Source of the DNA: Candidatus Marinacidobacterales bacterium
Lineage (GTDB): Bacteria; Acidobacteriota; Vicinamibacteria; Marinacidobacterales; DATDRI01
NCBI GenBank assembly: GCA_965219415.1
Contig: CBDCNP010000002.1
Coordinates: 4,832,001-4,896,000, forward strand
DNA length: 64,000 nucleotides
Direction of reading: 5' to 3'
In this document: positions 2,258 to 61,989 of the stretch, piece by piece
Layout of the letters: each line of letters opens with the position of its first letter
Position numbering within the stretch: position 1 is the stretch's first letter
Notes under the pieces: model-generated
Told to the model about the DNA's origin: nothing
Seen by the model: the letters and a program-made list of their open reading frames with translations, nothing else
Databases searched by the model: none
Translations under genes and position numbers: made by a program

Positions 2258-3322
2258 ATGTACGTCAACCGACTTACACAGTTGATTTTAGCCGGATTCG
2301 CACTCGAATTCGTGGTTCTATTCGGAGCCTGCACCTTGGAGGAAGGGCCGTCGCCCACTTCGAGCTCCCCCATGGACGTTGAAAGCGGCGAGGGCCAGCC
2401 AACGCTAGCCGCCGCCCCGGGTACCGTTCCACCAGAAATTGTCAGCCCAGAGCCGGGCGAAGAAGTCAGATCGCAATCCCCGTTACTGACAGTCAAGAAC
2501 GCCACGACCGACGAGGAACCGACCTACACCTTCCAGGTGGCGTCCGACCGCGGCTTCAACGACATCGTGGCCAGGGCGGGGGATATCCCCGAAGGTTCGG
2601 ACGGACAGACGTCCTGGCAGATTCAGAAGAAGCTGAGCGCGCAGAAGCATTTCTGGCGTGTCTACGCGGATTTAGGCACCATTCGGCTCACTTCCATGAT
2701 CGCCAACTTCATCGTTCCCGAGGAACCGGAACCGATCGTCGGCGGCGACGGGAACGCCATCCTCACCGATGCCCTCACCAATGGTGGCTCGATCGGGCAA
2801 GTCTCGGGCGGGACGTTCACGTCCCAAGGTTGGCAGGTCCAGGAGAAGAATAACTTCATCCGCTACGTCATCTCTCCGGTGGCCTCCGGCTACGTGCAGT
2901 TCGACACCTGGGGCATGCAACCTTCCAACCCCAGTCTCGATCAATTCATGCTGTTCGGAATGTGGGATCCTACCCGAGGGGACTATCGAGCGAATCCGTT
3001 TCGCGTGCACCTTCAAAAGCTGGACCCGAGGCACAACGGACCTTATCTCCGCCTAAGGTGGATTGCGCAAGGTGAGCAGCACGACGAGGGCAACTCTTTC
3101 CTGAACTGGGATCCCTCCACGACCTACACTTGGCATATTGCGTGGGGACCGTCAGGCTCTGGAAATCAGGCCAACGTTTTCATGAACGGCAATCGGATGA
3201 TTACCGTCAACTACCGCCGATCGTATAGTCCGAGCCAGCACTACGTCGAGCTCGGGATTCAGGAGCGCGCGGAGTCGATTCAAGGCGTCACCTACTCGAA
3301 CGTCGAGATTGGACGCCGCTAG
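2258..3322 (+). CDS. Putative secreted lipoprotein with beta-rich (Fn3-like and lectin-like) domains
   Basis: Hydrophobic N-terminus ending FGAC (lipobox-like), Pro/Ser linker, YTFQVA..F..W motif. Confidence 0.55.
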   Translation: MYVNRLTQLILAGFALEFVVLFGACTLEEGPSPTSSSPMDVESGEGQPTLAAAPGTVPPEIVSPEPGEEVRSQSPLLTVKNATTDEEPTYTFQVASDRGFNDIVARAGDIPEGSDGQTSWQIQKKLSAQKHFWRVYADLGTIRLTSMIANFIVPEEPEPIVGGDGNAILTDALTNGGSIGQVSGGTFTSQGWQVQEKNNFIRYVISPVASGYVQFDTWGMQPSNPSLDQFMLFGMWDPTRGDYRANPFRVHLQKLDPRHNGPYLRLRWIAQGEQHDEGNSFLNWDPSTTYTWHIAWGPSGSGNQANVFMNGNRMITVNYRRSYSPSQHYVELGIQERAESIQGVTYSNVEIGRR

Positions 3323-3360
3323 CTCATACACGAAATCAAGGCCATTATTTCGACCTCGAC

Positions 3361-4792
3361 CCCGTCCTGTGCCAAAACTCGGCCCTTTTGAAATAGGCCA
3401 TAAATCAGCAGCTTAGTGTCTGTGTTTGCGACTGGGCCAAGGCCGTAGGCTTTACAATCGTCTGGCCCGAGGGTGTTATCTTCAGCTCCATGATGACCTA
3501 CCACGTGCAATTCCTACTGCTCGTTGTGGCTGGCTGGGTCAACCGCCAGCAGCAGGATGTGATCGACTACCTGCAAGAGGAGAACCGTGTGCTCCGAGCC
3601 GGGCTTCGGGGCAAGCGTCTCAAGCTCTCGGACGACGACCGGCGCAGGCTCGCGGTCAAGGCCCAGGCTTTGGGCCGCGAGGCGCTGGCCCAGATTGCGT
3701 CCGTTGCCACACCCGCTACGCTTCTGCGCTGGTACCGCTACCTCATCGCAGCTAAGTACGATGGCAGCAAGAACCGGAGCCCAGGCCGACCTCCGACGGC
3801 GAAGGATATCCGTGAGCTCATTGTACGCGTGGCGCGAGAGAACCCGACGTGGGGATATACGCGCCTGCGGGGCGCACTCAAGAACCTCGGACATGAACTT
3901 GGACGCAACACCATCAAGAGGCTCCTCGCCGAGCACGGTATCGCTCCTGCGCCGGAGCGGGGCAAGAGCATGTCGTGGAGCACCTTCCTCAAGGCTCATT
4001 GGGGCGCTATCGCTGCGACAGACCTGTTCACCGTCGAGGTGGTGAACCCGTTCGGGCTCGTCCGCTACCATGTCCTGTTTGTCATCGATATCGCCACTCG
4101 CTGCGTGTGCATCGGTGGGATAAGCTCGGACCCAAACGGGGAGTGGATGAAGCAGGTGGCAAGAAACCTCACGGACATGTGGGATGGTTTCCTCCTTGGC
4201 AAACGGTACCTCATCCACGACCGGGACCCGCTATTTACTGAGGCAGTACGTGGGCTGTTGAGAGATTCAGGCGTGAAGCCCCTCCGCCTTCCCGCCAATA
4301 GTCCGAATCTGAACGCATACGCGGAAAGATTCGTTCTCTCCATACGTCGAGAGTGTCTCGACCGCTTCGTACCTCTCAATGAGCGACACCTGCGGACAGC
4401 GATAACCGAATACGTAGTGCACTATCACACCGAACGGAACCACCAAGGTCTCGGCAACGAGCTCATCACACCTCTGCCGGCAAGCGCGAATGACGCTGGT
4501 CCCATCGTGTCGCGAGAGCGACTTGGAGGCATTCTCAACTACTACTGCCGTGCCGCGTAGATGGTTTGCTGGCGACGGTAGCCCCTCGGTGCGCTCTACC
4601 GGCGTAGCGTGGAAACAGCTTCAGGAACATGCTTCGATATTCGCTCTCGACTAGGTGGTCATCTGCATGGTGACGACCCGCCCGCCCAAGACGATTGTAA
4701 AGCTCACGGCCCTTGGCCCGGTCGCAAACACAGACACTAAGTTGCTGATTTATGGCCTATTTCAAAAGGGCCGAGTTTTGGCACAGGACGGG
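3361..4792 (+). mobile_element. rve-integrase IS 'element A' with ~100 bp terminal inverted repeats
   Basis: Left end CCCGTCCTGTGCCAAAACTCGGCCCTTTTGAAATAGG…TTTACAATCGTCT is mirrored at ~4688-4792; no flanking target duplication visible. Confidence 0.85.
3490..4560 (+). CDS. Integrase core (rve, DDE) transposase A, IS481/IS3-like fold
   Basis: [35 protein letters not shown] motifs. Confidence 0.9.
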
Positions 4793-5712
4793 GGGGCGCC
4801 ACGCATCCATGCTGAGCTCACCAAGCTCGGTTTCATCATCTCCGAGATTACGGTGTCGCGATACCTGCCGCGGCATCCCGCGGAGCCCGACCAGCTGAAG
4901 CGATGGATGGCTTTCTTGCGCAACCATAAAGACGATATCGGCGCCATGGATCTGTTCACCGTGCCCACCGCGTCGCTCCGGCTGCTGTACGGCTTCTTCG
5001 TCATCGAGCACGGCCGTCGGCACATCGTTCACTTCAACGCCACCTTCCACCCGACACCTGTTCGCGTGCTAGAGTTTTAGCCTGATTTCGATAGGCGCAG
5101 TTCTTTCGTCGATGCCGGCTGGGCCGAGTTTTGGCACAGGACGGGAGAATCTCAACCGCGAATTTCGACGCCGGACGAAAACCCAAGCGTCGTTCTCCAG
5201 CGAGGAGTCTGCGGTCGCTTTGCTGTTTGGGCTTATCGCCTCTGGCGTCTGAGCGAGGTTCTCGAACACGCGGAGGTTGCCGCCTGATATGATACTCTGG
5301 TGTGCGGTCTTCCGGTTCAGGCGCCGAGGACCTTCTGGCCCTGCGTGCCTGATCTCACCCTCCCAGGATGGAACCCTTGCATTAGTATGATGGAGTCCAT
5401 ATAGCAGGGATACACCGCCCTCCGGCCTTACGTCGCGGTAGAAGTCGACGCCGGGAAGAGCAAGTCCATCAGGGAAGGAACCCGTGAGGTCAAAATACTC
5501 ATGCGGCTTCCCGTTGGAAAGGTGCAAACTGCTGACCCGATGGGCGTTCGAATATTTTGACCAGACGCGGTCCGGGCCCTAGAGTCCAGTCCCGGATTAA
5601 TAATGATGATGGACAACCTTGTTTTTTTGGATACGACGGGTACGCGATCTTCTCTTTTGCATCCCAAGGCCTTGTGGCGAATCCCCCTCCCCACCCGTCT
5701 CACGGTGTTCGT

Positions 5713-8100
5713 CTAAAAGAATCGAAACGAGTAACTCACCTTGACTCCCCTTCCGATCTCGGGAGCCAGATCCTTGATGAACGAAGTGTGGTTCCGATAA
5801 AGCTCGTTTGTGAGGTTGTAGCCCCGGACCGCGAAAATGTGAGCGCTGTGACCCCGGGCCAGCGTATAGGAACCGACCACGTTCACAACCGTGTAACCCT
5901 CGGTAAGTGTTTCGTCTCGAAAGATCTGATCCTGCTTCGAAGCCAAGACCACCTCCGGCTCTATGTTGAGTCCCTCGTAGACCACGCTGAAACCTATGCG
6001 TCCATGGAACGGCGGGATTCGAGGCAAGGGCTCGTTCGTGTCGGTGAGCTCAGCATTGACATAGCCCGCACCCACATCCAGAAACAGATTGCGGTGGACG
6101 CTGAATACACCTTTCGCATCGAAACCCACGAATCGGCTGTCGCCTTGTAGAAAGGGAGCCAGTAGAAGACCATCGACGATCTCGTCCGTATACGCCGGAA
6201 AGACAAAGTTGTCGATGTTGTAGTAGTAGACGTTGAACTCCCCTTGGAGTAGGCGTGACTGGTTCCTCAAGCTAAGATCTACTCCGATGCTCGCCTCTCG
6301 TTCCAAGTCGGCATTGCCCACCTCGAAAGCCAGAGTGCCAACGTGAGGCCCGAAATTGTAGAGTTCTTCGAGCGCTGGCGCGCGGTACGAGCGCGTGAAG
6401 TTGGCCACCAGCGCGGTGTTGGTGGCCACATCTACATGAAGCCCAATCGAGCCGGAAACACCCGTGAACGAGCGCGGCCGGGCTTCGGGAGGCTCGAGGT
6501 CGGTGTGCTCGTTCTCGTCGTCTTCCTCGCCTTCATGCTCTTCCCCTTCGTTCGCGTGACCGAGTCCTCCGCGCTCTTCGGGTTGGTAGTCGTTGTATTC
6601 CAGGCGGCCGCCAAACTGGAGGCGAGCCGCACCGGACAGTCGCAGTTCTTCATAGGCAAACGCCGCGAAGGCGCCATGAGTGGTCGCGGGAGCCAGGGCT
6701 TCCTCACCGACCGAGTTGTAGTCCCGAAACGTTGCCTCCACACCGAATGTCCCGTTGAGCTCTTCCGTGCGACGCTGCTCCACCGCGGCTCGGACCACGA
6801 ACACGTTGTTGTCGAATGTCGTGGCTACGGTGTCGACGCCCGCACTCGTCTCGACCTCGTCGTGGGTATAGTCGGTGTAGTTCATGACCACGCGAAAAGC
6901 GTCGAAGAAACGGTTGTCTAGGTTTCTGAGGCCGGCATCGAGTCGTGCCGACTGGCGTACGGTATCCACATCGACGAAGAGCTCTTCTTCCTCGTGATGG
7001 TCTTCTTCCCCCTCATGGTCTTCTTCCCCCTCATGGTGTTCTTCCCCCTCTGCCTCCTCGTGGCCATGAGCATGAAACTCACCCGCAAAGGGGATGCCGA
7101 AGCGGCCATTCTCGTGCTGATACCCAGCGCTGAAATAGGCTCTTTCCGTGAAGTAACCGACCCCGGCTCGGCCATTCGAGAGTCGAGAAGCCGAGTTCGC
7201 GACGGATCCCTCTGGTGTGTCGTAGTCATCCGTGCGCCGACCACTCGCACCGCCCCAGACGGCCCAATTGCCCTGGCCGAACTGAAACTGACCGTTGGCA
7301 CCTGCTTGGTTGTCGGTGGTCCCTCCGTCAACCGAGACCTGTCCCAAGAATCCCTCCAACTGCGTACGGATGAGGGCCTCGTGCGGTGTGACAGCATTGA
7401 CCACACCACCGATGGCGTTACTTCCGTATAGGAGGGTCGCAGGCCCTTTCACCAACTCCAGACGCCTCAAACCGCTGGGATCGAGTGTCACCCCGTGATC
7501 CGCGGACTGGCTAGAGAGATCGCCGGTTCGGATACCATCCTGCATTACTAATACCCGGTCTCCGTCGAAGCCGCGGATGATCGGTCGTTCCGACCCCGGC
7601 CCGAAGCTCCGCTTCGCGACCCCTGGATCTTTTTCTAACATCGCTCCCACCGAAATAGAGGGGTTCTTCGTGAGTTCCACCCAATCTAGCGAAGTGACGG
7701 TGTTGAAAGCCTCGAGGGTCACCACCTCGCCGGCTAGCTCGGCGGTTACGGTCATCGATTCGTGGATAGGTGATAGCTCCAGAGAAAAATCCACTTCCGC
7801 CGTTGTCCCGGCTGCCACCGATACCCGCTGCCTCTCGGCGGTCAGGTGGTCTCGCTGAGCCAGAATCTCGTAGTCTCCGACCGGTACCCCCTCGAACTCG
7901 AAGCGACCCTCGTGATTGACGGTGGTCGAGCGTCTCAATTCGACGATCAATACAAGTGTTCCGTGAACGGGCTCGCCGATGGCTCCGAGCACCACCGTGC
8001 CGGAGATGGCCCCCGTCTCCTGAGCTGAACTCACGTTCCCGATTATGAGTCCGACCACGACCATATGGAAAACAAACAAACTCCTACCGAACGACCTCAT
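5713..8100 (-). CDS. TonB-dependent receptor with His/Glu-rich loops (ZnuD-like metal uptake)
   Basis: Signal peptide, plug motif RPIIRG..ELVKGPATLLYGSNAIGGVVN, C-terminal F, and HAHGHEEAEGEEHHEGEEDH tracts. Confidence 0.9.
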   Translation of the reverse strand: MRSFGRSLFVFHMVVVGLIIGNVSSAQETGAISGTVVLGAIGEPVHGTLVLIVELRRSTTVNHEGRFEFEGVPVGDYEILAQRDHLTAERQRVSVAAGTTAEVDFSLELSPIHESMTVTAELAGEVVTLEAFNTVTSLDWVELTKNPSISVGAMLEKDPGVAKRSFGPGSERPIIRGFDGDRVLVMQDGIRTGDLSSQSADHGVTLDPSGLRRLELVKGPATLLYGSNAIGGVVNAVTPHEALIRTQLEGFLGQVSVDGGTTDNQAGANGQFQFGQGNWAVWGGASGRRTDDYDTPEGSVANSASRLSNGRAGVGYFTERAYFSAGYQHENGRFGIPFAGEFHAHGHEEAEGEEHHEGEEDHEGEEDHHEEEELFVDVDTVRQSARLDAGLRNLDNRFFDAFRVVMNYTDYTHDEVETSAGVDTVATTFDNNVFVVRAAVEQRRTEELNGTFGVEATFRDYNSVGEEALAPATTHGAFAAFAYEELRLSGAARLQFGGRLEYNDYQPEERGGLGHANEGEEHEGEEDDENEHTDLEPPEARPRSFTGVSGSIGLHVDVATNTALVANFTRSYRAPALEELYNFGPHVGTLAFEVGNADLEREASIGVDLSLRNQSRLLQGEFNVYYYNIDNFVFPAYTDEIVDGLLLAPFLQGDSRFVGFDAKGVFSVHRNLFLDVGAGYVNAELTDTNEPLPRIPPFHGRIGFSVVYEGLNIEPEVVLASKQDQIFRDETLTEGYTVVNVVGSYTLARGHSAHIFAVRGYNLTNELYRNHTSFIKDLAPEIGRGVKVSYSFRFF

Positions 8101-13216: not shown

Positions 13217-13729
13217 ATGCCGCAGCGCAACCTCGCCGTTGAGCTGTTGCAGAAGCTGCTGAAGGGCGAGCTTGCCACCCGCCGTCGGAAAAATGTCGTC
13301 CAGGCGCGCTCCTTTGCCGAGATGCTGGAACAAACGCTCCGCCGTTACCAGAACCGCGCTGTGGAAGCGGCACAGGTGGTCGAGGAACTGATTCAGCTCG
13401 CCCGGGAGCTACGGGAGGCGAACGCCCGCGGCGAAAAGCTCGGGCTCACAGAAGAAGAGCTGGCCTTCTACGACGCGCTTGAAACCAATGACAGTGCAGT
13501 CCAGGTACTGGGTGACGAGACCCTACGCGATATCGCACGAGAGTTGGTGGAGACCGTGCGCGGCAACGTTACCATCGACTGGACCCTGCGCGAGAATGTG
13601 CGGGCCAATCTCCGCCGGCTGGTCAAGCGTATCCTTCGCAGACACGGCTACCCGCCGGACAAACAGGAGAAGGCGACCCGGACGGTACTGGAACAGGCGG
13701 AGGTGTTGTCCGCTGGCTGGGCTGCTTGA
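13217..13729 (+). pseudogene. hsdR: Type I restriction HsdR C-terminal (DUF3387-like) fragment
   Basis: [53 protein letters not shown]; 5' part cut by an rve-B end. Confidence 0.85.
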
Positions 13730-14908: not shown

Positions 14909-15745
14909 ATGACTGACGAGCGCCAAATTCCCAGCGACAAAGACTTGTATTGGCCAACCCTCAAAGCATTGAAAGACCGGGGTGGTTCCGCCTCTATCCA
15001 GGAGCTTTCGGAGCAGGTGGCTACCGATCTGGCGCTACCCGACAAGCTTTTAGACGTCCCGCACAAAGATGGCCCACAATCCGAAGTCGATTATCGTGCT
15101 GCATGGGTGCGAACTAATCTGCGGTTTGCCGGCGCCATCGACAATACGTCACGTGGCATTTGGACGATCACAGACGTTGGCCGAAGGATTCAGACGGAGC
15201 AGGAAATGCATGATCTAGTCCGTCTGGGACGCGCGAAACAGAACAAGGCGAGGCGATCGCGGAACGCAGATGATGTGACAGATGAGCAGGATTGGAAAAA
15301 AGCCCTTTTGAGCATTGTTCGACGCGTGGAGCCTGCCGCCTTTGAACGTCTTTGCCAGCGCGTCCTTCGGGAATCAGGATTTACGAAGGTGGAAGTAATG
15401 GGCCGCTCTGGCGACGGTGGCATCGACGGCTCCGGCGTGTTGCGGGTCAACCTCATCTCCTTTCATGTTCGCTTTCAGTGCAAGCGGTACAGGGGTTCGG
15501 TCAGTGCGTCTGCGATCCGGGACTTCAGGGGAGCGATGGTCGGTCGCGCAGACAAGGGGTTGTTCATCACCACAGGAGGGTTTACCCAGGATGCAAAGCG
15601 AGAAGCCGTGAGGGACGGAGCACCGGCTATCGATCTGATCGACGGTATTGATCTTTGCATCCTGCTGAGGAAGCTCGGATTGGGCATCAGCACTGAGACC
15701 GTTGAAGTTGTCAAGCCTAGGCAGGATTTCTTCGACAGCCTTTGA
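14909..15745 (+). CDS. mrr: Mrr type IV restriction endonuclease (Mrr_N plus Mrr_cat)
   Basis: PTLKAL..YRAAWVRT..RGIWTIT; FERLC..GRSGDGGIDG..QCKRY..IRDFRGAM..LIDG. Confidence 0.92.
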   Translation: MTDERQIPSDKDLYWPTLKALKDRGGSASIQELSEQVATDLALPDKLLDVPHKDGPQSEVDYRAAWVRTNLRFAGAIDNTSRGIWTITDVGRRIQTEQEMHDLVRLGRAKQNKARRSRNADDVTDEQDWKKALLSIVRRVEPAAFERLCQRVLRESGFTKVEVMGRSGDGGIDGSGVLRVNLISFHVRFQCKRYRGSVSASAIRDFRGAMVGRADKGLFITTGGFTQDAKREAVRDGAPAIDLIDGIDLCILLRKLGLGISTETVEVVKPRQDFFDSL

Positions 15746-20299: not shown

Positions 20300-20457
20300 C
20301 CCTCGGTGGGCCCGTCGCCTGCCACCTGCAGCACAGGGGTCGGAAGCCAGCTATGCGCCGCGAAATACCCTGGATTCTGCGCGGATTCCAAGGGCGTCTA
20401 AGCTGCTGATTTGTGGTCTATTTCAAAAGGGCCGAGTTTTGGCACAGGACGTCGTAC

Positions 20458-20614
20458 GGTGCTTGCTGTTGGTGATGTGTACGCATCCCTTCGCAAAAAA
20501 GATGCTTACGCTCCATTTAGCGCGCAGCGAGGGTCACGAGCACTATTTTGGCTGTAATTTAATGCACTCTAAAGTCTTAGCGTCATCTCACCAACACTTA
20601 ATTGCGACAGCACC
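20458..20614. mobile_element. MITE 'C' (~165 bp, IS1-like GGTGCTT ends); copies at 25952-26117, 45112-45277, 55828-55993, 57435-57599; partial at 767, 13972, 16697, 50188
   Basis: Shares its terminal sequence with the IS1-like element at 837-2036. Confidence 0.85.
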
Positions 20615-20734
20615 CACCGAGGAGCCACTACAATCCAGCCATATCCCAACCGCTTTTTGTTCCTGGTTGTTCCATTTCTCTATAGACACACAAAAGTTAG
20701 TTTGATAGAGTATTTTGGGACAAGGAGGAACAAC

Positions 20735-23038
20735 GTGATGGTGGCGCAATACACGGCATCGAAGAGTTCGACGAAAGACGGCGCAGGATGGGTCTTAAGT
20801 TTTAGACACCCGCTGCGGAAAGACGCCCGCGGCAAGCAGGGCCGTAAGGTTCGCCGCGGGCTCAACACGTCCGATGAAACCCGGGCGCAGGTCCTGATCG
20901 ATCAGATGAACGCAATCCTCGGCGACGAGACGTGGCATAACGCGGCGAAGCGTCCAGAAGCGGAGCGGCGTTTCGATTCCATCGTCGTCCGTGCGTTCTA
21001 CGACGACATCGAATCGCCATCCACGAACTCATGGGAGGTCAGAGACCTTGCTTTCCCGCTACCGACCAGGGAAGACGGTTACGCCCAGGTGCTCATGGTT
21101 GGAACGACGGGCGCGGGGAAAACATCGCTACTGAGGCAACTTATCGGTTCCCACCCGGAACGCGACCGCTTTCCGTCCACGTCCGCGTCCAGAACCACCA
21201 TTGCCGACATCGAAGTCATTGCGTCCGACGATCCACAGTACAGGGCCGTGGTCACTTTCTTCCCCGAACAGACCGTCCACACGAATATCCATGAATGCGT
21301 CGCCGATGCCTGTACCGCACTGTGGGACTCAATACCCGACGACAAGCTCGCGGAAAGGCTGCTGACCCATCGTGACCTTCGCTTTCGCCTTGGATACGTC
21401 ATCGGGTCATGGAAACAGGTTTCTCCCTCGGAACCGCAGTCCGACGACGACGATTGGAGCTACGGTGAGACCGACAACCAGCCCCCGGAGCCTGCGCCCG
21501 AAGAAGACGGCCAGTTGCTGCCTACAGAGGTGGACATCGAAGAGATGCAGTCTCTTCTCCAGTCCTATCTTGACCGCATCAGAACGCTTGCCGACGATGT
21601 CAAGATTCAATTAGAGAACGAGCTGGACGTCGAGCTTGGCACCTTAAAAGGACTGGAAAAAGAAGCAGCCCAGGATCTGTTCGAAGACATTGTGCAGTCA
21701 CGTCCTGACTTCGATGAACTCGTCAATGACATCGTGGACGAGGTCAGGCTCCGTTTTGAGCAGATTGTCCTAGGTGAAGTCCGGACGCACACCAATGGCT
21801 GGCCGCTCTCCTGGAAGTACGAAAGCGCGGTCCGCAACGAATTCATTCGCGAAGTCCGACGGTTTTCCTCGAACTACGCCCGCGCGTTTGGCACTTTGCT
21901 GACACCGCTCGTCGATGGCATCCGCATTCGTGGGCCGTTCTTTCCGACATTTACCGATCACCGCGCTAGTCTCGTTCTAATCGACGGCGAGGGGCTAGGT
22001 CATGTTGGCGATCCCGCCGCAGGCGTTGCGTCCCGGATCGCACAGCGCTTTGCCGATGTGGATGTCATCCTGCTAGTCGATTCTGCAAAAAGTCCGATGA
22101 TGGAAGCGCCTGTTTCCGTTCTTCGCGCGGTCGCCGCCAGCGGCTACCAGAAGAAGCTGGCCTTCTCCTTTACGCATTTCGATCTTATGAAAGGGCAGGC
22201 GAATCTCCCAAACTTTCAGGCACAACGCGCGCACGTATTGTCCGCCGTTCGCCAGAAACTCATCGCCCTGCGTGAGATCGTCGGCCAGCCCGCCGTGCGG
22301 GCGATCGAGCGCGAACTAGATGAGCGTTGTTTCATGCCTGGGTTTCTCGACCGCCCTCTAACGGAGAGACAGCGCGGTCCGGTCCGCGAGATTCTGAAAT
22401 TGATCAAATTCTGTGAAGGTGCCATAACCCCCGCGGAAGAGACCGCTGTCTGCCCAGTCTATGATACGGCGGGGCTTGTCCTCGCGATCCAGGCCGCGGC
22501 CACAGAATTCCACGCCCGCTGGAATGCCATCCTTTTCACTGGCTCCAGCAATGTCTCCAAAGCTCATTGGACCCAAGTCAAGGCGCTCAACCGCCGTGTC
22601 GTTCTCGACATTGACGGGGGTGAGTATAAGAGCCTGAAGCCAGTTGCCGACCTTGTCGCGCGGCTGTCGGAGTCGATCACGAGGTTTCTTGACAAACCGA
22701 TCCGGTGGGAGCCGCAAATGCCTGCCATAGCAGAAGCTGATGAGGCACTCTTGCGCGTACAGCGGGCGGTTTTCTCCCAGCTTCACGCCTTCGTTGAAAC
22801 CAAACTCATTCGTGTGCCGCGCAGGGACTGGATGAGGGCATTCGATTACAGTGGGCCCGGGTCCACCTATGCCCGTGCGGATGTCATCCGCATGATTTGC
22901 GAGAGGTCCGCCCCCATACCGGGCCCTGCGCTCGATGCGCACTCAGAAGAGTTTCTCCGCGAAGTCAGAATTCTGCTTCACGAGGCGATCCACGAAGGCC
23001 ATGGCAAACTAGTCAGCGATGTTCTCGGTGAGGATTGA
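20735..23038 (+). CDS. Large P-loop GTPase-like protein with an N-terminal Arm-like DNA-binding region
   Basis: GTTGAGKT (G1), SRTT (G2), LIDGEG (G3), THFD (G4-like); AGGAGG RBS. Confidence 0.75.
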   Translation: MMVAQYTASKSSTKDGAGWVLSFRHPLRKDARGKQGRKVRRGLNTSDETRAQVLIDQMNAILGDETWHNAAKRPEAERRFDSIVVRAFYDDIESPSTNSWEVRDLAFPLPTREDGYAQVLMVGTTGAGKTSLLRQLIGSHPERDRFPSTSASRTTIADIEVIASDDPQYRAVVTFFPEQTVHTNIHECVADACTALWDSIPDDKLAERLLTHRDLRFRLGYVIGSWKQVSPSEPQSDDDDWSYGETDNQPPEPAPEEDGQLLPTEVDIEEMQSLLQSYLDRIRTLADDVKIQLENELDVELGTLKGLEKEAAQDLFEDIVQSRPDFDELVNDIVDEVRLRFEQIVLGEVRTHTNGWPLSWKYESAVRNEFIREVRRFSSNYARAFGTLLTPLVDGIRIRGPFFPTFTDHRASLVLIDGEGLGHVGDPAAGVASRIAQRFADVDVILLVDSAKSPMMEAPVSVLRAVAASGYQKKLAFSFTHFDLMKGQANLPNFQAQRAHVLSAVRQKLIALREIVGQPAVRAIERELDERCFMPGFLDRPLTERQRGPVREILKLIKFCEGAITPAEETAVCPVYDTAGLVLAIQAAATEFHARWNAILFTGSSNVSKAHWTQVKALNRRVVLDIDGGEYKSLKPVADLVARLSESITRFLDKPIRWEPQMPAIAEADEALLRVQRAVFSQLHAFVETKLIRVPRRDWMRAFDYSGPGSTYARADVIRMICERSAPIPGPALDAHSEEFLREVRILLHEAIHEGHGKLVSDVLGED

Positions 23039-23118
23039 ACGGGCGCGAACCCACGGTATTAACACCGTGGCCGTTTCTCGCAAGTGGAAACGGATAGTGT
23101 ATCAAATTGACTGTAGAG

Positions 23119-23718
23119 ATGAGCAAACGCATTCTTGAAAAATGGGCTGACAGCCTTGTCACGGCAGGGCGTGAACCCGCCTGCGAAACCGTTGACGAGT
23201 TCGATCGGGTCCTCAGCGATGCAGCCGATGAGCGCCCCCTGCAAACTTTCCTCGCATCGTCTCCAGTACTTCTTGGCCCCCTGGCACCGACTGGCAGTAA
23301 CTATTGGTGTCTTGATCGGCCACGGCTTGGTGCTGAGCATGTACCTGACTTTCTCCTGGCGTCCATCACTTCTGTTGGATTCCGTTGGGTCATGATCGAG
23401 CTGGAGAACCCAAATGAGAAGGCGCTAACGAAGGCCGGTGTGCCCGCCAAGAAGCTCGCCGAAGCGCTCGGGCAGGTGCGGGACTGGCGCATATGGCTTA
23501 CGGACAATATTGCCTACGCGCGTGAGGGACTCGGGCTGAAGGACGTTGACGCCAACTGTATGGCATTTATCATCATCGGGCGACGTAGCAGTCTCGAACC
23601 GAAACAGATCAAGAAATACAGGGCGCTCTCAACTGATGCAGTCACGGTAATGTCTTACGACCGCCTCCACGATCATATAAAGAGTAGTGCCTGCAAGAGC
23701 GAGGTCCGGAATGGATAA
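23119..23718 (+). CDS. Minimal Shedu/DUF4263-type nuclease
   Basis: E..LQ.FL, PDFLL, IELENP, ALGQVRDW, IIGRR, SYD motifs. Confidence 0.8.
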   Translation: MSKRILEKWADSLVTAGREPACETVDEFDRVLSDAADERPLQTFLASSPVLLGPLAPTGSNYWCLDRPRLGAEHVPDFLLASITSVGFRWVMIELENPNEKALTKAGVPAKKLAEALGQVRDWRIWLTDNIAYAREGLGLKDVDANCMAFIIIGRRSSLEPKQIKKYRALSTDAVTVMSYDRLHDHIKSSACKSEVRNG

Positions 23719-25561
23719 CGGCGAGATAGAACGGTTTTTTCGTGATACCGATGTTTGCATCTGGCAGAACCCTTCACTGCGCGAACCGCAGATAGACGGC
23801 TACTTCGCGATTCGTGACCACTTCAAGCACAGCGACGAACCGTGCTACGTCCAGCTCCCGGTTGGTTGCGGCAAGACGGGCCTGATGGGACTGACGCCCT
23901 TTAGTGTCGCAAAAGGCCGTATTCTTATCATTGCCCCGAATCTTACAATCCGGGAAAACATACGGCGTGAACTCAATGTCAGCCATCCGAACTGCTTCTA
24001 TAGCAAGAGGGGGGTGTTCGTCCCTAAAGACGGCCCCTACCTGTCCGAACTCAAAACTGGTGCAAATATTCATGATTGCGATGCTGCTCACATCGTTATC
24101 GCCAATATCCAGCAGTTCTCCGGATCACGCAACAAATGGTACGAGGCGCTGCCGGCCGACTACTTTGACATGATCTTGTTTGACGAAGGACACCATAATG
24201 TCGCCGAGACCTGGACGCGACTCTGCGAGTATTTCAGCGACGCCAAGGTTGTCTCGTTTACTGCGACCCCGATGCGCTCGGATGGGAAGGTGGTTTCAGG
24301 CAAGCAGGTCTACAGGTTCGGCTACGGACGCTCAATGATCATGGGCTTCATTTCGCAGATCGACGCGCTCTTCGTCAAACCCACCGAGCTTACGTTCTCT
24401 ATCGAGGGAACGACCAACACGCTCGGCATCTCCGAGATCATGGAGATGCGCGAAAAAGACTGGTTCAGCCGCGGCGTTGCGGTTTCGGAAGAGTGCAACC
24501 GCAGTATTGTGAACGCCTCCGTTCAGCAACTTCACCACATGCGGACTCTGGGGTCGCCCCGGCAGTTGATCGCCGTCGCGTGCTCCATCCGCCACGCGGA
24601 TCAGGTTGCGGCTCTGTACAAAGAACATGGCCTGCGGGTCGAGGTTCTGAACAGCGACCTGAAAGACGACGAGCGCGACCGCATTGAGGCAACCTTGCGC
24701 AGCGGCGTTACCGACGTTGTCGTGCAGGTGAATATTCTTGGAGAGGGCTACGATCTGCCAACACTGTCCGTAGCCGCCGTATTTCGTCCTTACCGAAGTC
24801 TCTCACCGTACGTACAGTTCGTCGGGCGTATCCTGCGTCTTGCACAACCGGATACGCCGTACTCCCACACCAACCGGGTCTGCCTTGTTTCTCATATCGG
24901 TCTCAACGATGACCGATGGTGGAGCGATTTTACGAACTTCGACAATGACGATCAGCAATTCTTCCACGAATACCTGCAAGGAGAACTTGAAATCGAGGGT
25001 GAAGGCGAGGGATCGCCTCGACTCACACTCCGTCCGTTTATGCGTGTCCTGAATGAAGTTGTCGAGAGTTACCAGCGCAAAGGGTACTTGAAGAAAATTG
25101 ATGACGTAATGATCGGAGAGCTGTTCGACACGATCAGGGAGAAGGGATTTGAGCCGGCCGACTTCGGCCTGACGGAAGAGGTTGTGAGGAGACGCTTGGC
25201 CGCGGCTCAGACCGAAGGGCAGGTCTCGGCGTTTAACCCGGTTATCCAACCGCAGGAGCGCCGTGAGGCGCTCAGGGGCAGGCTGCAACAGGAAACGCGA
25301 TCCATTGCCGACACCGTCGTGAACCGCATGGGACTTAAGCACCGGGGACGAGACCTCCTGAAAAGCTTTTCCGGTAACCACAACTCCGAGATTCTCATCA
25401 GGCTCGCGAGTGCGGAACAGAACAACGTGATGGGGCTTCCTTCCGGGCAACGCCAGTTGGCGAATATTGTCCAGCTTGAGAGCGCAATCAATGCGTCCCC
25501 GGACATCGCCGACAAACTATCCACCCTTGTCAGGGAGAAGCTCAAAGATGCCGCGTCCTAA
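23711..25561 (+). CDS. Superfamily 2 DExH helicase (ResIII-like)
   Basis: LREPQ, PVGCGKT, DEGHH, TATP, GEGYDLP, QFVGRILR; overlaps the upstream stop codon. Confidence 0.9.
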   Translation: MDNGEIERFFRDTDVCIWQNPSLREPQIDGYFAIRDHFKHSDEPCYVQLPVGCGKTGLMGLTPFSVAKGRILIIAPNLTIRENIRRELNVSHPNCFYSKRGVFVPKDGPYLSELKTGANIHDCDAAHIVIANIQQFSGSRNKWYEALPADYFDMILFDEGHHNVAETWTRLCEYFSDAKVVSFTATPMRSDGKVVSGKQVYRFGYGRSMIMGFISQIDALFVKPTELTFSIEGTTNTLGISEIMEMREKDWFSRGVAVSEECNRSIVNASVQQLHHMRTLGSPRQLIAVACSIRHADQVAALYKEHGLRVEVLNSDLKDDERDRIEATLRSGVTDVVVQVNILGEGYDLPTLSVAAVFRPYRSLSPYVQFVGRILRLAQPDTPYSHTNRVCLVSHIGLNDDRWWSDFTNFDNDDQQFFHEYLQGELEIEGEGEGSPRLTLRPFMRVLNEVVESYQRKGYLKKIDDVMIGELFDTIREKGFEPADFGLTEEVVRRRLAAAQTEGQVSAFNPVIQPQERREALRGRLQQETRSIADTVVNRMGLKHRGRDLLKSFSGNHNSEILIRLASAEQNNVMGLPSGQRQLANIVQLESAINASPDIADKLSTLVREKLKDAAS

Positions 25562-25781
25562 ACAAATGGTTAAACGGTCCGAGGTCGAGGTCGCAAAGGC
25601 TCGGCGGACATGCAAGTTCACGAACGAGCCGATCACCAAGGGCTCGGTCTGCCTTGTTGTTTATGACGGTCCGCAGGACCGATCATGTTACTCGCGCGAC
25701 ATTGCGCTTGAAATGATCAGGCTGGGACGCCAACGACTTGACGACCTGGAGAATGAACTGTCCAAGGAGCAACACTCCTGA
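25548..25781 (+). CDS. Small protein translationally coupled to the helicase
   Basis: ATG overlaps the helicase end; AKARRTCKFTNEPITKG loosely resembles a PARP-type Zn-finger N-terminus. Confidence 0.6.
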   Translation: MPRPKQMVKRSEVEVAKARRTCKFTNEPITKGSVCLVVYDGPQDRSCYSRDIALEMIRLGRQRLDDLENELSKEQHS

Positions 25782-26268
25782 TGGCAGGCAGGCTGGAGAT
25801 AGGTCAACGAGTGGATAGGCGCTGCGTCGTGCCCGTCGAGCTGAATCCGGTCGTAACAGGCGACGGTCGCGTGTTACGACCCTTAACTGGAGAGTGCCCC
25901 TGTGAGTAGTTCGATTGTAGTTCAGCTGCCCGAACGACCCCGTCCTGTGCCGGTGCTTACGCTGTTTGCTGTTGGTGATGTGTACGTATCCCTTTGCAAA
26001 AAAATCGCTTACGCTTCATTTAGCGCGCGGCGAAGGTCGCGAGCGCTATTTTGGCTGTAATTTAATGCAGCGTAAAGTCTTAGCGTCATCTCACCAACAC
26101 TTAATGGCAGAAGCACCCCATTACATGCGATGGCGGTCGTCGGCACACGCAGACCAACTGACACTAGCATTCAAACGCGGCGTAGCAACACTTGATGGCG
26201 GAAGCGCCCACGGAACTATTAAGCGTTTCAAGATATTGGTGCATTTATAGACGCATTACAGAATGCAC

Positions 26269-26298: not shown

Positions 26299-26317
26299 TC
26301 TTGTGGAGAAAACATTT

Positions 26318-26692
26318 ATGGCATTTGAGACCTTCAAGCGCAAGTCCAGACCATTCGTCAACGATCCAATTGTAGGCATTCAGACGCGTGGCACCCTATC
26401 TTTAAACGCAGCCGCCTTCAATCTTCTGAAAGGCGGTCGTGATGTCGAGAAATTGTACGCCGAGCTTCTATTCGATCCGGAAAATCATATCGTTGGTATA
26501 CGAGCGGCCGACAAGGGAGCATCAAACAGCTACATCGTCCGCAAGCAAAATTATGCAGAATCTTATCTTATGACAGCAAGGGCATTTGTCGTGTATTACG
26601 GTATTGAACACGGGGAGGCAAGGCACTATTCTCTGAAGGACTTCGGTGACGGTATAGTCGGGTTCTCGTTGAAGAACGATCTGATATGTTGA
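26318..26692 (+). CDS. Small hypothetical protein
   Basis: GGAG RBS and promoter upstream; 124 aa beta-rich ORF. Confidence 0.65.
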   Translation: MAFETFKRKSRPFVNDPIVGIQTRGTLSLNAAAFNLLKGGRDVEKLYAELLFDPENHIVGIRAADKGASNSYIVRKQNYAESYLMTARAFVVYYGIEHGEARHYSLKDFGDGIVGFSLKNDLIC

Positions 26693-26858: not shown

Positions 26859-27080
26859 GGCCCCATCTAGTACACGGAATACGGTGGCGTTGTCAAACAA
26901 GTTCTTGGCGGCGCGACCAGCTATGACCTCCTGTGCCTTCTATTTATTCATCCGCCAGCCCATGGGTCGGAAGTCAGCCCTGCGGCGCGAATTACCCTGG
27001 ATTCTGCGCGGATTCCAAGGGCGTCTAAGCTGCTAATTTGTGGTCTATTTCAAAAGGGCCGAGTTTTGGCACAGGACGGG

Positions 27081-56372: not shown

Positions 56373-57329
56373 ATGCGACTTTTTTCCATTCCTGTATGGG
56401 TCGCTGTGCTCGCCATGGGCTCGTGGGACGACCTCGCAGCGCCCCAGACATTGTGACGGGGCTTAGTGGTTGCCCCCGAATCTCGCTGCTCCCCGTACGA
56501 CGCAGACGACTATCGGTATCCGCAGTCCGTGGAGGACCGGATCGTCGCCGAGCTTGGCGGCGTCTATGGTCCCTATACGGGTCGCTGGTTCGCCAACAAA
56601 CGGGAGACAGACATTGAGCATATCGTCGCGCGCTCCGAGGCACACGACAGCGGGCTTTGTGCGGCGGATGAGGCGACCCGCCGACGCTTCGCAATGGACC
56701 TGCTGAATCTGACGCTGGCAAGTCCCGGCGTGAACCGGAACCAGAAGCGTGCTCGCGACGCCGCGGAGTGGTTACCTGACCAGAACCGGTGCTGGTTCGC
56801 GGACCGTAGCCTTGCGGTCCGCCGAAAGTACGGTCTGACGATAGACCAACGGGAGGCAGACGCCCTTGAGAGCGTGTTGTCTGGTTGCCAGTCGACCGAG
56901 CTGGTCGTGGTGGCCCGTGGTGCCTCACCGGCCGCTCAGGACATCACCCCGACGGCGGCCGATGCGCGTGAGACGCTTGTCGAGTGGGACGACAACGACG
57001 ATGGCCGTATCACGTGCGCCGAGGCCCGCGCGCATGGGATTGCCCCGGTGCGCCGCAACCATCCAGCCTACCCCTATATGCGCGATGGGGATGGAGATGG
57101 GATTGTCTGCGAGGCCGGTGGCAGTGAGACCAAGGGCGGCATTGCGCACCAAGAGCCAGCATCTGCGGCACGCAGCAGCAGGGCGCTCCGTCAATACGAC
57201 GAAAACGGCAACGGGCGTATCACGTGCGCCGAGGCCCGCGCGCATGGGATTGCCCCGGTGCGCCGCGGCCATCCCGCGTACCCCTACATGCGGGATGCCG
57301 ACGGGGACGGGGTGGTCTGCGAGCGATGA
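56373..57329 (+). pseudogene. Secreted DUF1524/HNH-like nuclease with two Excalibur Ca-binding repeats; in-frame TGA at 56454
   Basis: DIEHIV..EA, NL..VNR.K..DAAEWLP, and two DGDGDG.VCE repeats; the signal peptide is in frame upstream of the TGA. Confidence 0.75.
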
Positions 57330-58904: not shown

Positions 58905-60162
58905 TGGACTTGACCCGCTTTCGTGGACACCTAATCCTTTGGGAGACAGGAGTCCACGATGTCAAAGCAGGGAAACAGATACGCGGCCGAGTTCCGGCGC
59001 CAAATGGTAGAGCTGGTGCGAGCTGGCCGCGGCTCCGAAGAGCTGGCGCGAGAGTTTGAGCCCTCGGGCCAGACGATCCGGAACTGGGTGAACCAGGCGG
59101 ATCTCGACGAGGGTCGCAGGCAGGACGGTCTGACGAGTGAGGAGCGTGCGGAGCTCCGCCGCCTGCGACGGGAGAACCGTTAACTACGGTTGGAGCGGGA
59201 GATCCTCTCAAAAGCCGCGGCCTGGTTCGCTCGGGAGACCGAGTCGGTACCACCGAAGCCTTCCGATTCGTGAGGGCGAACCAGGATTCACTACCGGTTG
59301 CCACGATGTGCCGACTGCTGGACGTCTCCGCCAGCGGCTACTATGCGTGGCTTGAGCGTGCCCCGTCGGCCCGCGCGGTGTCGGATGCGGAGTTGCTTGA
59401 GAAGATCCGGGCGATTCACACCGCGTCGCGGAGCACGTACGGCGCGCCGAGGATCCTCCACGAGCTACGAGAGACACACGAGCTCCACGTCTCACGCAAG
59501 CGTGTAGCGCGGCTAATGCGCGAGGCTGGCATTCAAGGTGTTCACCGGCGCAAGAGGGCGCACACTACGATTCGCTGTGACGACGCCCGTCCCGCCCCCG
59601 ATCTCGTCGACAGGAATTTCGAGGTGGACCGGCCCGACCGCCTGTGGGTCGCCGATATCACCTACGTGCCCACGTGGTCGGGCTTCTTGTTCCTCGCCGT
59701 CGTGCTGGACGCCTTCAGCCGACGCATCGTCGGATGGGCAATGGCTACCCACCTGCGGACGTCGCTCGTCTTGAGCGCCCTCGACATGGCGCTGTTCCAA
59801 CGCAAGCCCGGCGACGTCATCCATCACTCGGACCAGGGCACGCAGTACACGTCACTAGCGTTCGGCCAGCGATGCCGGGAGGCCGGGGTGCGACCGTCGA
59901 TGGGTTCAGTCGGGGACTGTTACGACAATGCGATGTGCGAGAGCTTCTTCGCGACGCTCGAGTGCGAGCTGATCGAGCGCCGGTCGTTTCGCTACCACGC
60001 TGAGGCGCGCATGGCGACCTTCGATTTCATCGAAGGCTGGTACAACCCGCGACGACGACACTCCGCCATCGACTATTGCTCGCCTATCCAATTCGAAAGG
60101 AGGTACTATCGCGACGCTTGATCCCTAACTCTTAACCTGTCCACGAAAGCGGGGTCACTTCA
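58905..60162 (+). mobile_element. IS3-family (type 2) copy 1; orfA with premature TAA at 59181, orfB at 59270-60121
   Basis: TG…CA ends with GACCC(C)GCTTTCGTGGACA IR; WVADITY, HSDQG, DNAMCESFF motifs. Confidence 0.92.
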
Positions 60163-60731: not shown

Positions 60732-61989
60732 TGAAGTGACCCCGCTTTCGTGGACAGGTTAAGAGTTAGGGATCAAGCGTCGCGATAGTACCTCCTTTCG
60801 AATTGGATAGGCGAGCAATAGTCGATGGCGGAGTGTCGTCGTCGCGGGTTGTACCAGCCTTCGATGAAATCGAAGGTCGCCATGCGCGCCTCAGCGTGGT
60901 AGCGAAACGACCGGCGCTCGATCAGCTCGCACTCGAGCGTCGCGAAGAAGCTCTCGCACATCGCATTGTCGTAACAGTCCCCGACTGAACCCATCGACGG
61001 TCGCACCCCGGCCTCCCGGCATCGCTGGCCGAACGCTAGTGACGTGTACTGCGTGCCCTGGTCCGAGTGATGGATGACGTCGCCGGGCTTGCGTTGGAAC
61101 AGCGCCATGTCGAGGGCGCTCAAGACGAGCGACGTCCGCAGGTGGGTAGCCATTGCCCATCCGACGATGCGTCGGCTGAAGGCGTCCAGCACGACGGCGA
61201 GGAACAAGAAGCCCGACCACGTGGGCACGTAGGTGATATCGGCGACCCACAGGCGGTCGGGCCGGTCCACCTCGAAATTCCTGTCGACGAGATCGGGGGC
61301 GGGACGGGCGTCGTCACAGCGAATCGTAGTGTGCGCCCTCTTGCGCCGGTGAACACCTTGAATGCCAGCCTCGCGCATTAGCCGCGCTACACGCTTGCGT
61401 GAGACGTGGAGCTCGTGTGTCTCTCGTAGCTCGTGGAGAATCCTCGGCGCGCCGTACGTGCTCCGCGACGCGGTGTGAATCGCCCGGATCTTCTCAAGCA
61501 ACTCCGCATCCGACACCGCGCGGGCCGACGGGGCACGCTCAAGCCACGCATAGTAGCCGCTGGCGGAGACGTCCAGCAGTCGGCACATCGTGGCAACCGG
61601 TAGTGAATCCTGGTTCGCCCTCACGAATCGGAAGGCTTCGGTGGTACCGACTCGGTCTCCCGAGCGAACCAGGCCGCGGCTTTTGAGAGGATCTCCCGCT
61701 CCAACCGTAGTTGACGGTTCTCCCGTCGCAGGCGGCGGAGCTCCGCACGCTCCTCACTCGTCAGACCGTCCTGCCTGCGACCCTCGTCGAGATCCGCCTG
61801 GTTCACCCAGTTCCGGATCGTCTGGCCCGAGGGCTCAAACTCTCGCGCCAGCTCTTCGGAGCCGCGGCCAGCTCGCACCAGCTCTACCATTTGGCGCCGG
61901 AATTCGGCCGCGTATCTGTTTCCCTGCTTTGACATCGTGGACTCCTGTCTCCCAAAGGATTAGGTGTCCACGAAAGCGGGTCAAGTCCA
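60732..61989 (-). mobile_element. IS3-family (type 2) copy 2, intact (orfA 61621-61935, orfB 60773-61624)
   Basis: Inverted, near-identical copy of 58905-60162. Confidence 0.92.

Follow-up and report, generated by a model that had tools for sequence, protein, structure and literature searches.

Do four intact genes that lie close together and point the same way form a single defense system, or have separate systems come to rest side by side? This question is raised by a locus in Candidatus Marinacidobacterales bacterium (GenBank assembly GCA_965219415.1, contig CBDCNP010000002.1), within a stretch of 64,000 nucleotides (nt; positions 4,832,001 to 4,896,000 of the forward strand) that we call the window and whose own numbering is used below. 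Four co-oriented open reading frames (ORFs) lie between 20657 and 25781: g1, encoding a GTPase; g2, a Shedu-type nuclease; g3, a superfamily 2 (SF2) helicase; and g4, a small protein. An earlier note, made from the sequence alone, had proposed them as one candidate anti-phage operon. The reading we favor, and hold to be reasonably probable on the sequence comparisons described here, is that one lineage has brought together, head to tail, two autonomous mobile modules: module B, a nuclease-helicase defense unit made up of g2, g3 and g4, and module A, which is g1 standing alone. Both units probably defend against phages.

The gene models are secure enough to carry this argument, and the earlier note's account of four intact genes, the last three overlapping, is borne out by the ORF list, by homologue alignments and by direct reading of the sequence. 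The first gene, g1 (20735-23038, + strand), encodes a dynamin-like GTPase of 767 amino acids (aa), of the mitofusin/BDLP class and without a Pfam family. It is followed by g2 (23119-23718, +; 199 aa), a PD-(D/E)xK nuclease of the DUF4263-only, or type II, Shedu class, whose most likely start is ATG 23119, as in its homologues—the ORF lister places it at TTG 23107 instead—so that the g1-g2 gap in the window measures 68-80 nt. The helicase gene g3 (23711-25561, +; 616 aa; ResIII and Helicase_C domains) starts at ATG 23711, where all relatives in the alignment open with MDN.EI..FF, and overlaps g2 by 8 nt at the g2 stop (ATGGATAA). The last gene, g4 (25548-25781, +), encodes a basic protein of 77 aa that belongs to no family; its ATG at 25548 precedes the g3 stop, giving an overlap of 14 nt. 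Homologues are plentiful, with 2740 matches to g1 and 270 to g2 at E<=0.001 among 8000 scored candidates, and 231 clusters for g3 at E<=1e-30 in a search of 1.84 billion representatives; the many homologues of all four genes mark them as real genes rather than chance ORFs.

Which of these genes travel together? A metagenome scan with the g2 alignment returned 63 loci, 30 of them with close relatives of g2 (L050-L079) and 33 with distant ones. Four of the close loci end inside or just past g2, leaving 26 with room downstream, and in 23 of these g3 follows directly after g2, usually with overlapping frames; the exceptions are L075 and the pair L078 and L079, which are two records of one truncated g2 fragment. 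Where g3 is complete (12 loci), phmmer finds g4 after it in nine; L071 adds one more beyond phmmer's nine, an overlapping ORF of 72 aa that aligns with g4, and the mutually identical L066 and L067 are without g4. None of the 33 distant DUF4263 loci, which share at most 40% identity with g2 and many of which have long N-termini, carries this helicase adjacent in the same orientation. Upstream of the close g2 relatives, g1 is present only in L050, L051, L054 and L055, and it is absent from 11 loci that offer 1.6-6 kb of upstream sequence (L052, L056, L058, L059, L060, L062, L063, L071, L073, L074 and L077). The upstream genes of those loci are mutually unrelated, and include a type I R-subunit tail with YgjP, a helix-turn-helix (HTH)-M78 gene, MobA, PrimPol and TPR genes. 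The g2-g3-g4 set is a conserved unit, then, in which overlapping frames tie one clade of short nucleases to a helicase and a small protein.

The short nuclease is recognizable as a Shedu protein by several measures. In what follows its residues are numbered from TTG 23107. The Pfam model SduA_C (DUF4263, PF14082) matches residues 40-187 of 203 with an E-value of 9.1e-15 and 55.6 bits against a cut-off of 27, and 12 SduA models in PADLOC match as well, the best at 6.1e-19. Only about 39 residues precede the domain, which fits the DUF4263-only class that lacks the N-terminal regulatory domain of type I, and agrees with the earlier note's description of DUF4263 motifs with almost no N-terminal sensor. 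That note had also taken Shedu to be normally a single-gene nuclease regulated by a variable N-terminal domain; this holds for type I but needs qualifying for the family, since the DUF4263-only proteins form a named class—Type 2 in Gu et al., with 2,286 of 7,687 members, and Type II in Loeff et al., with 21% of 645. According to both Shedu papers, the nuclease is held off by the N-terminal domain, and removal of that domain makes the DUF4263 domain toxic. For the forms that are naturally short, Gu et al. suggest that they may be constitutively active, and Loeff et al. call the type II mechanism unclear and additional co-factors probable. The toxicity of the isolated domain, together with the co-factors suspected for type II, leads one to expect a partner for g2.

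The catalytic motifs of g2 are largely those of the family. Motifs I (E), II (D) and IV (Q) of the PD-(D/E)xK fold were defined for B. cereus Shedu by Gu et al., and the corresponding E42, D81 and Q123 of g2 are invariant or nearly so in alignments of 20 and 12 sequences and of 57 rows. Motif III reads E98-L-E100 in place of ExK, as the earlier note had seen, though this is common among relatives: the 57 aligned members of g2's branch of DUF4263 comprise 51 with ExE, five with ExK and one with KxE. The ExE form is also found in proteins of 340-492 aa with N-terminal domains, and is therefore not peculiar to the operon. Glutamate can occupy the position of the motif III lysine in active enzymes such as BamHI. 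Separately from this locus, the host genome carries a second DUF4263 gene outside the window (C1:1937049-1937441, - strand; a 273-aa frame with 66.6 bits to PF14082), which has only 29% identity to g2.

The helicase encoded by g3 matches ResIII (5.3e-24) and Helicase_C (5.6e-13) in Pfam and carries the motifs PVGCGKTG and DEGHH, of which GCGKTG and DEGHH are invariant in 12 sequences. In a PDB profile search its nearest solved relatives are SauUSI (7clg, 9e-15), RadD, the type I subunit HsdR and archaeal XPB; Foldseek places RadD and XPB-Bax1 first, using a structure model of low confidence with a predicted local distance difference test score (pLDDT) of 63.5. The C-terminal stretch of about 230 residues is conserved and helical, and matches no known family. 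Within the host phylum, a g3 relative at E<=1e-40 is present in only 4 of 400 other genomes. A prediction of the g3-g2 complex gave an interface score (ipSAE) of 0.00 in two runs with alignments of 12 rows each and no controls, a result that counts neither for nor against a physical complex.

The wider helicase family is informative about what g3 may be coupled to. Among 17 of the best full-length g3 relatives that were scanned, six carry an N-terminal HNH nuclease (P0255, P0256, P0257, P0261, P0269 and P0274) and two an N-terminal HTH domain (MerR or HTH_17). No fused DUF4263 is present in these 17, a scan that covered helicase relatives and left the longer g2 relatives unsearched; a fusion of DUF4263 to ResIII is mentioned by Gu et al. 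The HNH and HTH domains fused in helicase relatives indicate that the nuclease is a swappable part. Of the earlier proposal that Shedu is a swappable effector in a GTPase-helicase system, the swappable nuclease is supported, and the GTPase as an obligate member is not.

The third member of the unit, g4, has no match in Pfam, PADLOC or NCBIfam, and the ESM atlas gives unnamed clusters only. The protein has an isoelectric point (pI) of 8.9, and the alignment shows one nearly invariant cysteine (Cys22) followed by a C-terminal helix; distant relatives carry a CxxC...CxxC pattern, of which the window's clade has a degenerate form. Small ORFs also overlap the 3' end of the helicase gene at two loci where the helicase is fused to an HTH domain, one in a genome (L114) and one on a viral contig (L118). 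These two ORFs are mutual homologues (E 2e-11), and hhalign compares g4 with them at an E-value of 0.0059 for L118 (probability 6%) and 0.31 for L114. On the viral contig, the HTH_17-fused g3 relative and its overlapping 88-aa ORF stand beside an AbiEii-type gene (2907-3875(-) and 4842-7089(+)).

Does g1 belong to the same unit? A scan for g1 that took one genome per species gave 48 loci from many phyla; L029 is an uninterpretable 1.2-kb fragment, which leaves 47. Only at L007 does g2 lie beside g1, and the other 46 interpretable loci have no g2, g3 or g4 within up to 16 kb. A search for a g2-like gene in ten whole g1-bearing genomes found it in none, using a query that does recover g2 in the host genome, and 40 relatives of the host genome yielded no g1. 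Clustering of the neighbors uncovered no conserved partner, with no family common to more than three loci. Relatives of g1 also occur on 19 viral contigs, alone and with unrelated neighbors (85 of the 98 neighboring ORFs were scanned with Pfam). The synteny of g1 homologues, which the earlier note had put forward as a check on its operon, thus goes against the GTPase as an obligate member; its idea that sensing is outsourced from the nuclease to the GTPase or the helicase is supported in so far as the nuclease, without a sensor domain of its own, is tied to the helicase at 23 of 26 loci.

The surroundings of the solitary g1 copies are those of mobile and defense genes. On 11 of the 19 viral contigs, g1 adjoins opposite-strand genes for tail-tube, tape-measure, DUF6441, head-tail attachment, cement or capsid proteins, where accessory "moron" genes are classically found, and other viral copies adjoin integrase or recombinase genes. 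One recurring spot was seen in related prophages: on L120, L121, L123, L128, L130, L131 and L137, g1 relatives of 40-42% identity lie on the opposite strand between tail-tube/tape-measure genes and DUF6441/head-tail attachment/capsid genes. For the genome loci, PADLOC was run on 143 of 178 nearest-neighbor ORFs at 37 g1 loci, and a defense gene within two genes of g1 was found strongly at seven loci and more weakly at three others. The seven strong matches are a type I restriction-modification (RM) system; SIR2-HerA; DruE with a DpdE/DrmD-like helicase; a methyltransferase (MTase)-Vsr-BilD set; PDC-S13; PDC-M37B/DolB; and Fic with a reverse transcriptase. Two individual loci deserve mention. 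In Massilia (L033:9524-16210), g1 is followed by a 1778-aa DruE-like helicase (MZB, DUF559) and a DpdE/DrmD-like SNF2 protein, and at L005:7001-9331 two consecutive ORFs of 395 and 373 aa make up the g1 homologue, which is probably frameshifted or a pseudogene.

What kind of protein is g1? A Pfam scan assigns no family and gives sub-threshold P-loop matches only, and structure prediction is more telling. The AlphaFold2 model (pLDDT 86.6; predicted template modeling score 0.86) was compared with known structures by VIA-align, where the best six matches are all of the dynamin superfamily: mitofusin-2 (Z 15.1), Fzo1 (14.7), the Campylobacter dynamin-like protein (14.6), SynDLP (14.1), IniA (13.3; 341 aa, model residues 111-756) and BDLP (12.8; 374 aa, model residues 114-767). 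The best Foldseek matches are SynDLP (E 6.1e-07) and IniA. By its predicted structure, then, g1 is a dynamin-like GTPase of the mitofusin/BDLP class, in which a G domain is followed by a helical trunk. The ESM atlas places g1 in its own unnamed clusters and offers a SrfC/Virul_Fac lead at 0.93; Pfam at E<=1 gives no match to that family.

The GTPase motifs and the acidic insert that the earlier note had read in g1 are both present, the motifs being conserved in alignments of 32 sequences reaching down to 34% identity. The G1 motif, or P-loop, is GTTGAGKTS (21101-21127, +; aa 123-131), with G123, G126, G128, K129 and T130 invariant; G3 is DGEG (21983-21994, +; aa 417-420), with D417 and G420 invariant; and the G4-like motif is THFD (22172-22183, +; aa 480-483), with T480 and D483 at least 90% conserved. 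This last motif has the form THxD, not (N/T)KxD. Between G2 and G3 lies an acidic helical insert of about 170 residues (aa ~178-345), inside which aa 229-256 (21419-21502, +) form a disordered loop with a pLDDT below 50 and a pI of 4.1. No hydrophobic segment that could form a membrane hairpin is present in g1, the maximum Kyte-Doolittle mean over 19 residues being 1.42; an amphipathic paddle may still be present. The gene starts at GTG 20735 or ATG 20738, and is preceded by a promoter-like site, TAGACA-17-TAGAGT (20683-20711, +), and a ribosome-binding site, AAGGAGG (20722-20728, +), each of which is a consensus match only.

At its N-terminus, g1 has a basic domain (20735-21019, +; aa 1-95; pI 9.8) modeled as three strands followed by helices. 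The earlier note had likened this region to the arm-binding domains of integrases, a resemblance that comparison with those domains does not uphold: none of 20 N-termini matches an Arm family in Pfam at E<=5, hhalign against a real Arm-DNA-bind_3 domain gives a probability of 0.4%, and there is no PDB sequence match at E<=10. Whole-model fold searches barely probed residues 1-100, and a fold search with the domain alone was not made. DUF6538 appears below threshold in two of the 20 N-termini (E 0.06-0.07).

Several bacterial dynamin-like proteins—BDLP, IniA, SynDLP, DynA and the Eleos protein LeoA—have the G-domain fold and helical trunk in common with g1 (Z 12.8-15.1), and dynamin-like proteins have been linked to phage resistance in published accounts. 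In contrast to these proteins, g1 has the additional basic N-terminal domain and the acidic helical insert of about 170 aa, and it has neither a hydrophobic segment nor a partner gene. An assignment to LeoA of Eleos was considered and rejected, as the PADLOC model for LeoA matches at an E-value of 0.043 over the P-loop only, the VIA-align Z-score is 9.3, and there is no conserved neighbor that could be a LeoBC partner.

How, then, did g1 come to lie in front of g2? Six loci with a confirmed g1-g2 link are available, namely the window, L007, L050, L051, L054 and L055; in all of them the genes are co-oriented, with a gap of 25-80 nt. In a FastTree phylogeny of 67 g1 sequences, the six confirmed linked copies and seven probable ones (g1 and g2 matches on equal-sized contigs) fall in one terminal subclade, together with one confirmed unlinked locus, L002; 45 other unlinked copies fall outside it. 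As the linked copies are all confined to one terminal subclade, the four-gene block appears to be a derived, recurrent joining of two modules. In the maximum-likelihood tree of g2, five linked and five unlinked rows are interspersed in one supported clade of 13 rows (98/96), and the supported branches force at least two changes of linkage. The simplest reading of the two trees would be a single joining event in a young g1 lineage, after which the four-gene block spread and g1 was occasionally lost.

Contigs from public runs allow the two parts to be compared as well; no RNA run is listed among those that contain this DNA. The segment 23017-25889, which holds g2-g4 and flanks, is found at about 99% identity in contigs from four public runs belonging to four studies; one contig of 2925 nt, for example, spans the whole of it with 34 differences in 2873 nt, and in each of the four runs a contig piece begins at 23017. 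A g1 relative is present in two of these runs at about 92% identity (177 differences in 2220 nt), on other contigs and at a different depth. In the remaining two runs most of g1 is uncovered at >=90% identity, a cut-off that a more divergent g1 would escape. The contrast between g2-g4 at about 99% and g1 at about 92% on other contigs agrees with two separable parts. In the runs X5 and X6, we also observed a contig with the ~92% g1 that joins 23032 to 23101; 68 nt are skipped, so that g1 nearly abuts g2 and the spacer with the hairpin described below is gone.

These same data bear on a rival in which the four genes of this lineage work as a single integrated system: the GTPase would sense infection, either by binding DNA with its basic N-terminus or by responding to membrane stress, and would trigger the helicase-Shedu pair. 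We judge this unlikely. It has real points in its favor: the genes are co-oriented at six confirmed loci with a gap of only 25-80 nt, the link has outlasted a divergence of g1 to 69-80% identity and of g2 to 68-75%, linkage prevails within the single subclade that the linked g1 copies form, and a terminator scan returns no strong terminator in the gap. The scan has no entry there at all, not even for a 7-bp hairpin (ccacggt-attaac-accgtgg; 23051-23070, +) that was found by reading the sequence and has no strong run of T after it. Yet that hairpin does lie in the gap, each part is met far more often alone than together with the other, the g2 tree mixes linked and unlinked rows with at least two forced changes, all ten g1-bearing genomes lack a g2-like gene, and divergence in other samples is unequal between g1 and g2-g4. 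A related proposal would see in the g1 family a new kind of phage- and island-borne dynamin-like immunity protein with a nucleic-acid-binding head, placed in this lineage upstream of a type II Shedu nuclease that is gated by the helicase and for which the GTPase would sense infection; we give it the same low standing.

Under the two-module reading, how might module B work? Lacking an N-terminal brake of its own, g2 would be restrained and aimed by g3 and g4, to which it is translationally coupled. The helicase g3 may act as the DNA sensor and motor, loading on or translocating along abnormal or foreign DNA and thereby licensing g2 to cut, and g4 may serve as an adaptor or regulator. Nuclease-NTPase systems, XPB-Bax1 and SauUSI are the models from which we infer that g3 restrains or aims g2. 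In module A, g1 would be a soluble dynamin-like GTPase, carried as a single-gene cassette of a large unnamed family, with a putative role in phage exclusion or superinfection exclusion that is independent of module B.

It is useful to set module B against the systems it most resembles. With type II Shedu it has in common the DUF4263 domain alone and the retention of motifs I, II and IV; type II Shedu is described as a single-gene system in the accounts drawn on here, whereas g2 comes in a fixed set with a helicase and a small protein and has ExE at motif III. Hachiman (HamA-HamB) and the nuclease-NTPase systems (bioRxiv 10.1101/2025.07.10.664194), as far as the published descriptions used here go, follow the same logic, in that a conserved operon pairs a nuclease gene with an adjacent SF2 helicase gene. 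In contrast to Hachiman, the nuclease in the window is DUF4263 rather than DUF1837, the helicase is RadD/XPB/ResIII-like, and a third small gene is conserved. Archaeal XPB-Bax1 and SauUSI, which by profile and fold count among the closest solved structures to g3, both couple a motor to a nuclease; they differ in having other nuclease partners and in serving repair or modification-dependent restriction, and their likeness to g3 is limited to the helicase core. Lastly, KELShedu (KELA-KELB) resembles module B in that a DUF4263 nuclease needs a separately encoded small partner. There, by the published account in so far as it is used here, KELB (38.6 kDa) has an N-terminal domain of its own, the gene for the dsDNA-binding KELA (12.6 kDa) lies upstream, and no helicase or ATPase is involved.

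The earlier note had not recognized the combination as a named system, and our comparisons concur. PADLOC (2023 models) recognizes only SduA in the locus and no multi-gene system, its matches to g3 being through generic helicase regions of mREase_IV, PbeA, DpdF and others. In the literature searched we found no description of a Shedu-helicase operon; the supplements of Gu et al. fall outside that search and may list helicase neighbors. The Shedu neighborhoods listed by Gu et al. in the text available (section 9) comprise only RM, BREX, transposon and prophage contexts. The locus reads as a novel variant of the nuclease-NTPase type plus an unnamed dynamin-like family.

A second rival concerns module B alone, and sees in it an abortive-infection or toxin-antitoxin-like pair: g2 would be constitutively toxic and neutralized by g4, g3 or both until infection, with no DNA-guided targeting. 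The suggestion of constitutive activity for DUF4263-only Shedu (Gu et al.), the toxicity of N-terminally truncated Shedu, and the precedent of KELShedu as a two-gene abortive Shedu with a small partner, all as given in the sources drawn on here, are compatible with such an arrangement, and g4 is small, basic and translationally coupled like many antitoxins. We nevertheless consider it improbable. In this operon g4 comes after the helicase and not after the nuclease, what is conserved alongside g2 is a helicase of 616 aa whose ATPase motifs are intact, and the relatives that fuse the helicase to HNH suggest a machine of motor and nuclease rather than a plain antidote. The last rival, that the genes serve the mobile DNA that carries them, for example by helping an island or prophage to recombine, replicate or be repaired, rather than defending the host, is the least likely of those weighed here: the nearest solved helicases RadD and XPB are repair enzymes, the loci lie among insertion sequence (IS) elements and relaxase, PrimPol and ParB genes, and g1 occurs inside prophages, but DUF4263 has so far been tied to phage defense in the Shedu literature used here, RM, Mrr, AbiEii, SIR2-HerA and Druantia genes are frequent neighbors, and the contexts vary too much for the genes to have a fixed role in one type of element.

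Returning to the reading of two joined modules, a number of points weigh against it or against parts of its mechanism. Within the linked g1 subclade, linkage is the rule, with six confirmed and seven probable cases against one unlinked locus; taken together with the short gap of 25-80 nt and the lack of a strong terminator, this makes co-transcription and cooperation possible in that lineage, where the four-gene block may benefit from the presence of both modules. On the side of module B, g2 is without the canonical lysine of motif III, and conservation is the ground for assuming that it acts as a nuclease; g3 was modeled with low confidence, at a pLDDT of 63.5; and the kinship of g4 with the small ORFs that follow HTH-helicases is weakly supported, while position, size and cysteine pattern fit. 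On the side of module A, the share of g1 loci with defense neighbors stands without a background rate.

The setting in the wider window counts in favor of the two-module reading. Its predicted gene content is that of an IS-rich defense island: a type I restriction R subunit is represented by a fragment of its C-terminus (13217-13726; profile positions 163-327 of 329), accompanied by an Mrr-type enzyme with Mrr_N and Mrr_cat domains (14909-15742), a GmrSD_C+Excalibur protein (56466-57326), an MmeI-like type IIG enzyme that runs past the window end (62045-64000, -), and at least eight transposase genes or fragments. Two of the latter, IS3-type ORFs of 283 aa with identical Pfam scores (59270-60118(+) and 60776-61624(-)), lie inverted about 660 nt apart.

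Repeats flank the locus itself. The earlier note had drawn attention to two copies of a miniature inverted-repeat transposable element (MITE) on either side; these repeats, about 160 nt long, are real (20455-20615 and 25958-26118, both +, 88% identical to each other), and a further 123-nt repeat lies at 20329-20451 (+), 93% identical to 26956-27078. The ~158-nt element has at least 40 copies in the 8.05-Mb host genome among the 50 matches listed, and two flanking copies are therefore not special. Some observations on these repeats may be recorded here. Summed contig depths of the ~158-nt MITE reach the thousands in four unrelated metagenome runs; contig joints were seen between the two MITE copies, as was one from 20451 to 26184, with sides of only 21-30 nt that lie in high-copy repeat. 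Between the right MITE and the second 123-nt repeat there is a 129-aa ORF (26303-26692) in a low-GC patch (0.46), with no Pfam match.

What the locus means depends on which of its parts is considered. The short Shedu clade with its fixed helicase and small-protein partners provides a clonable three-gene case of how a sensor-less nuclease may be restrained and aimed. The helicase family, in which the effector is swapped—DUF4263 as a separate protein, HNH fused, HTH fused—amounts to a natural experiment on the modularity of nuclease-helicase systems. Finally, g1 stands for a dynamin-like family that is large and unnamed, with relatives in the thousands and without a Pfam model, and is a good candidate for a new single-gene exclusion factor.

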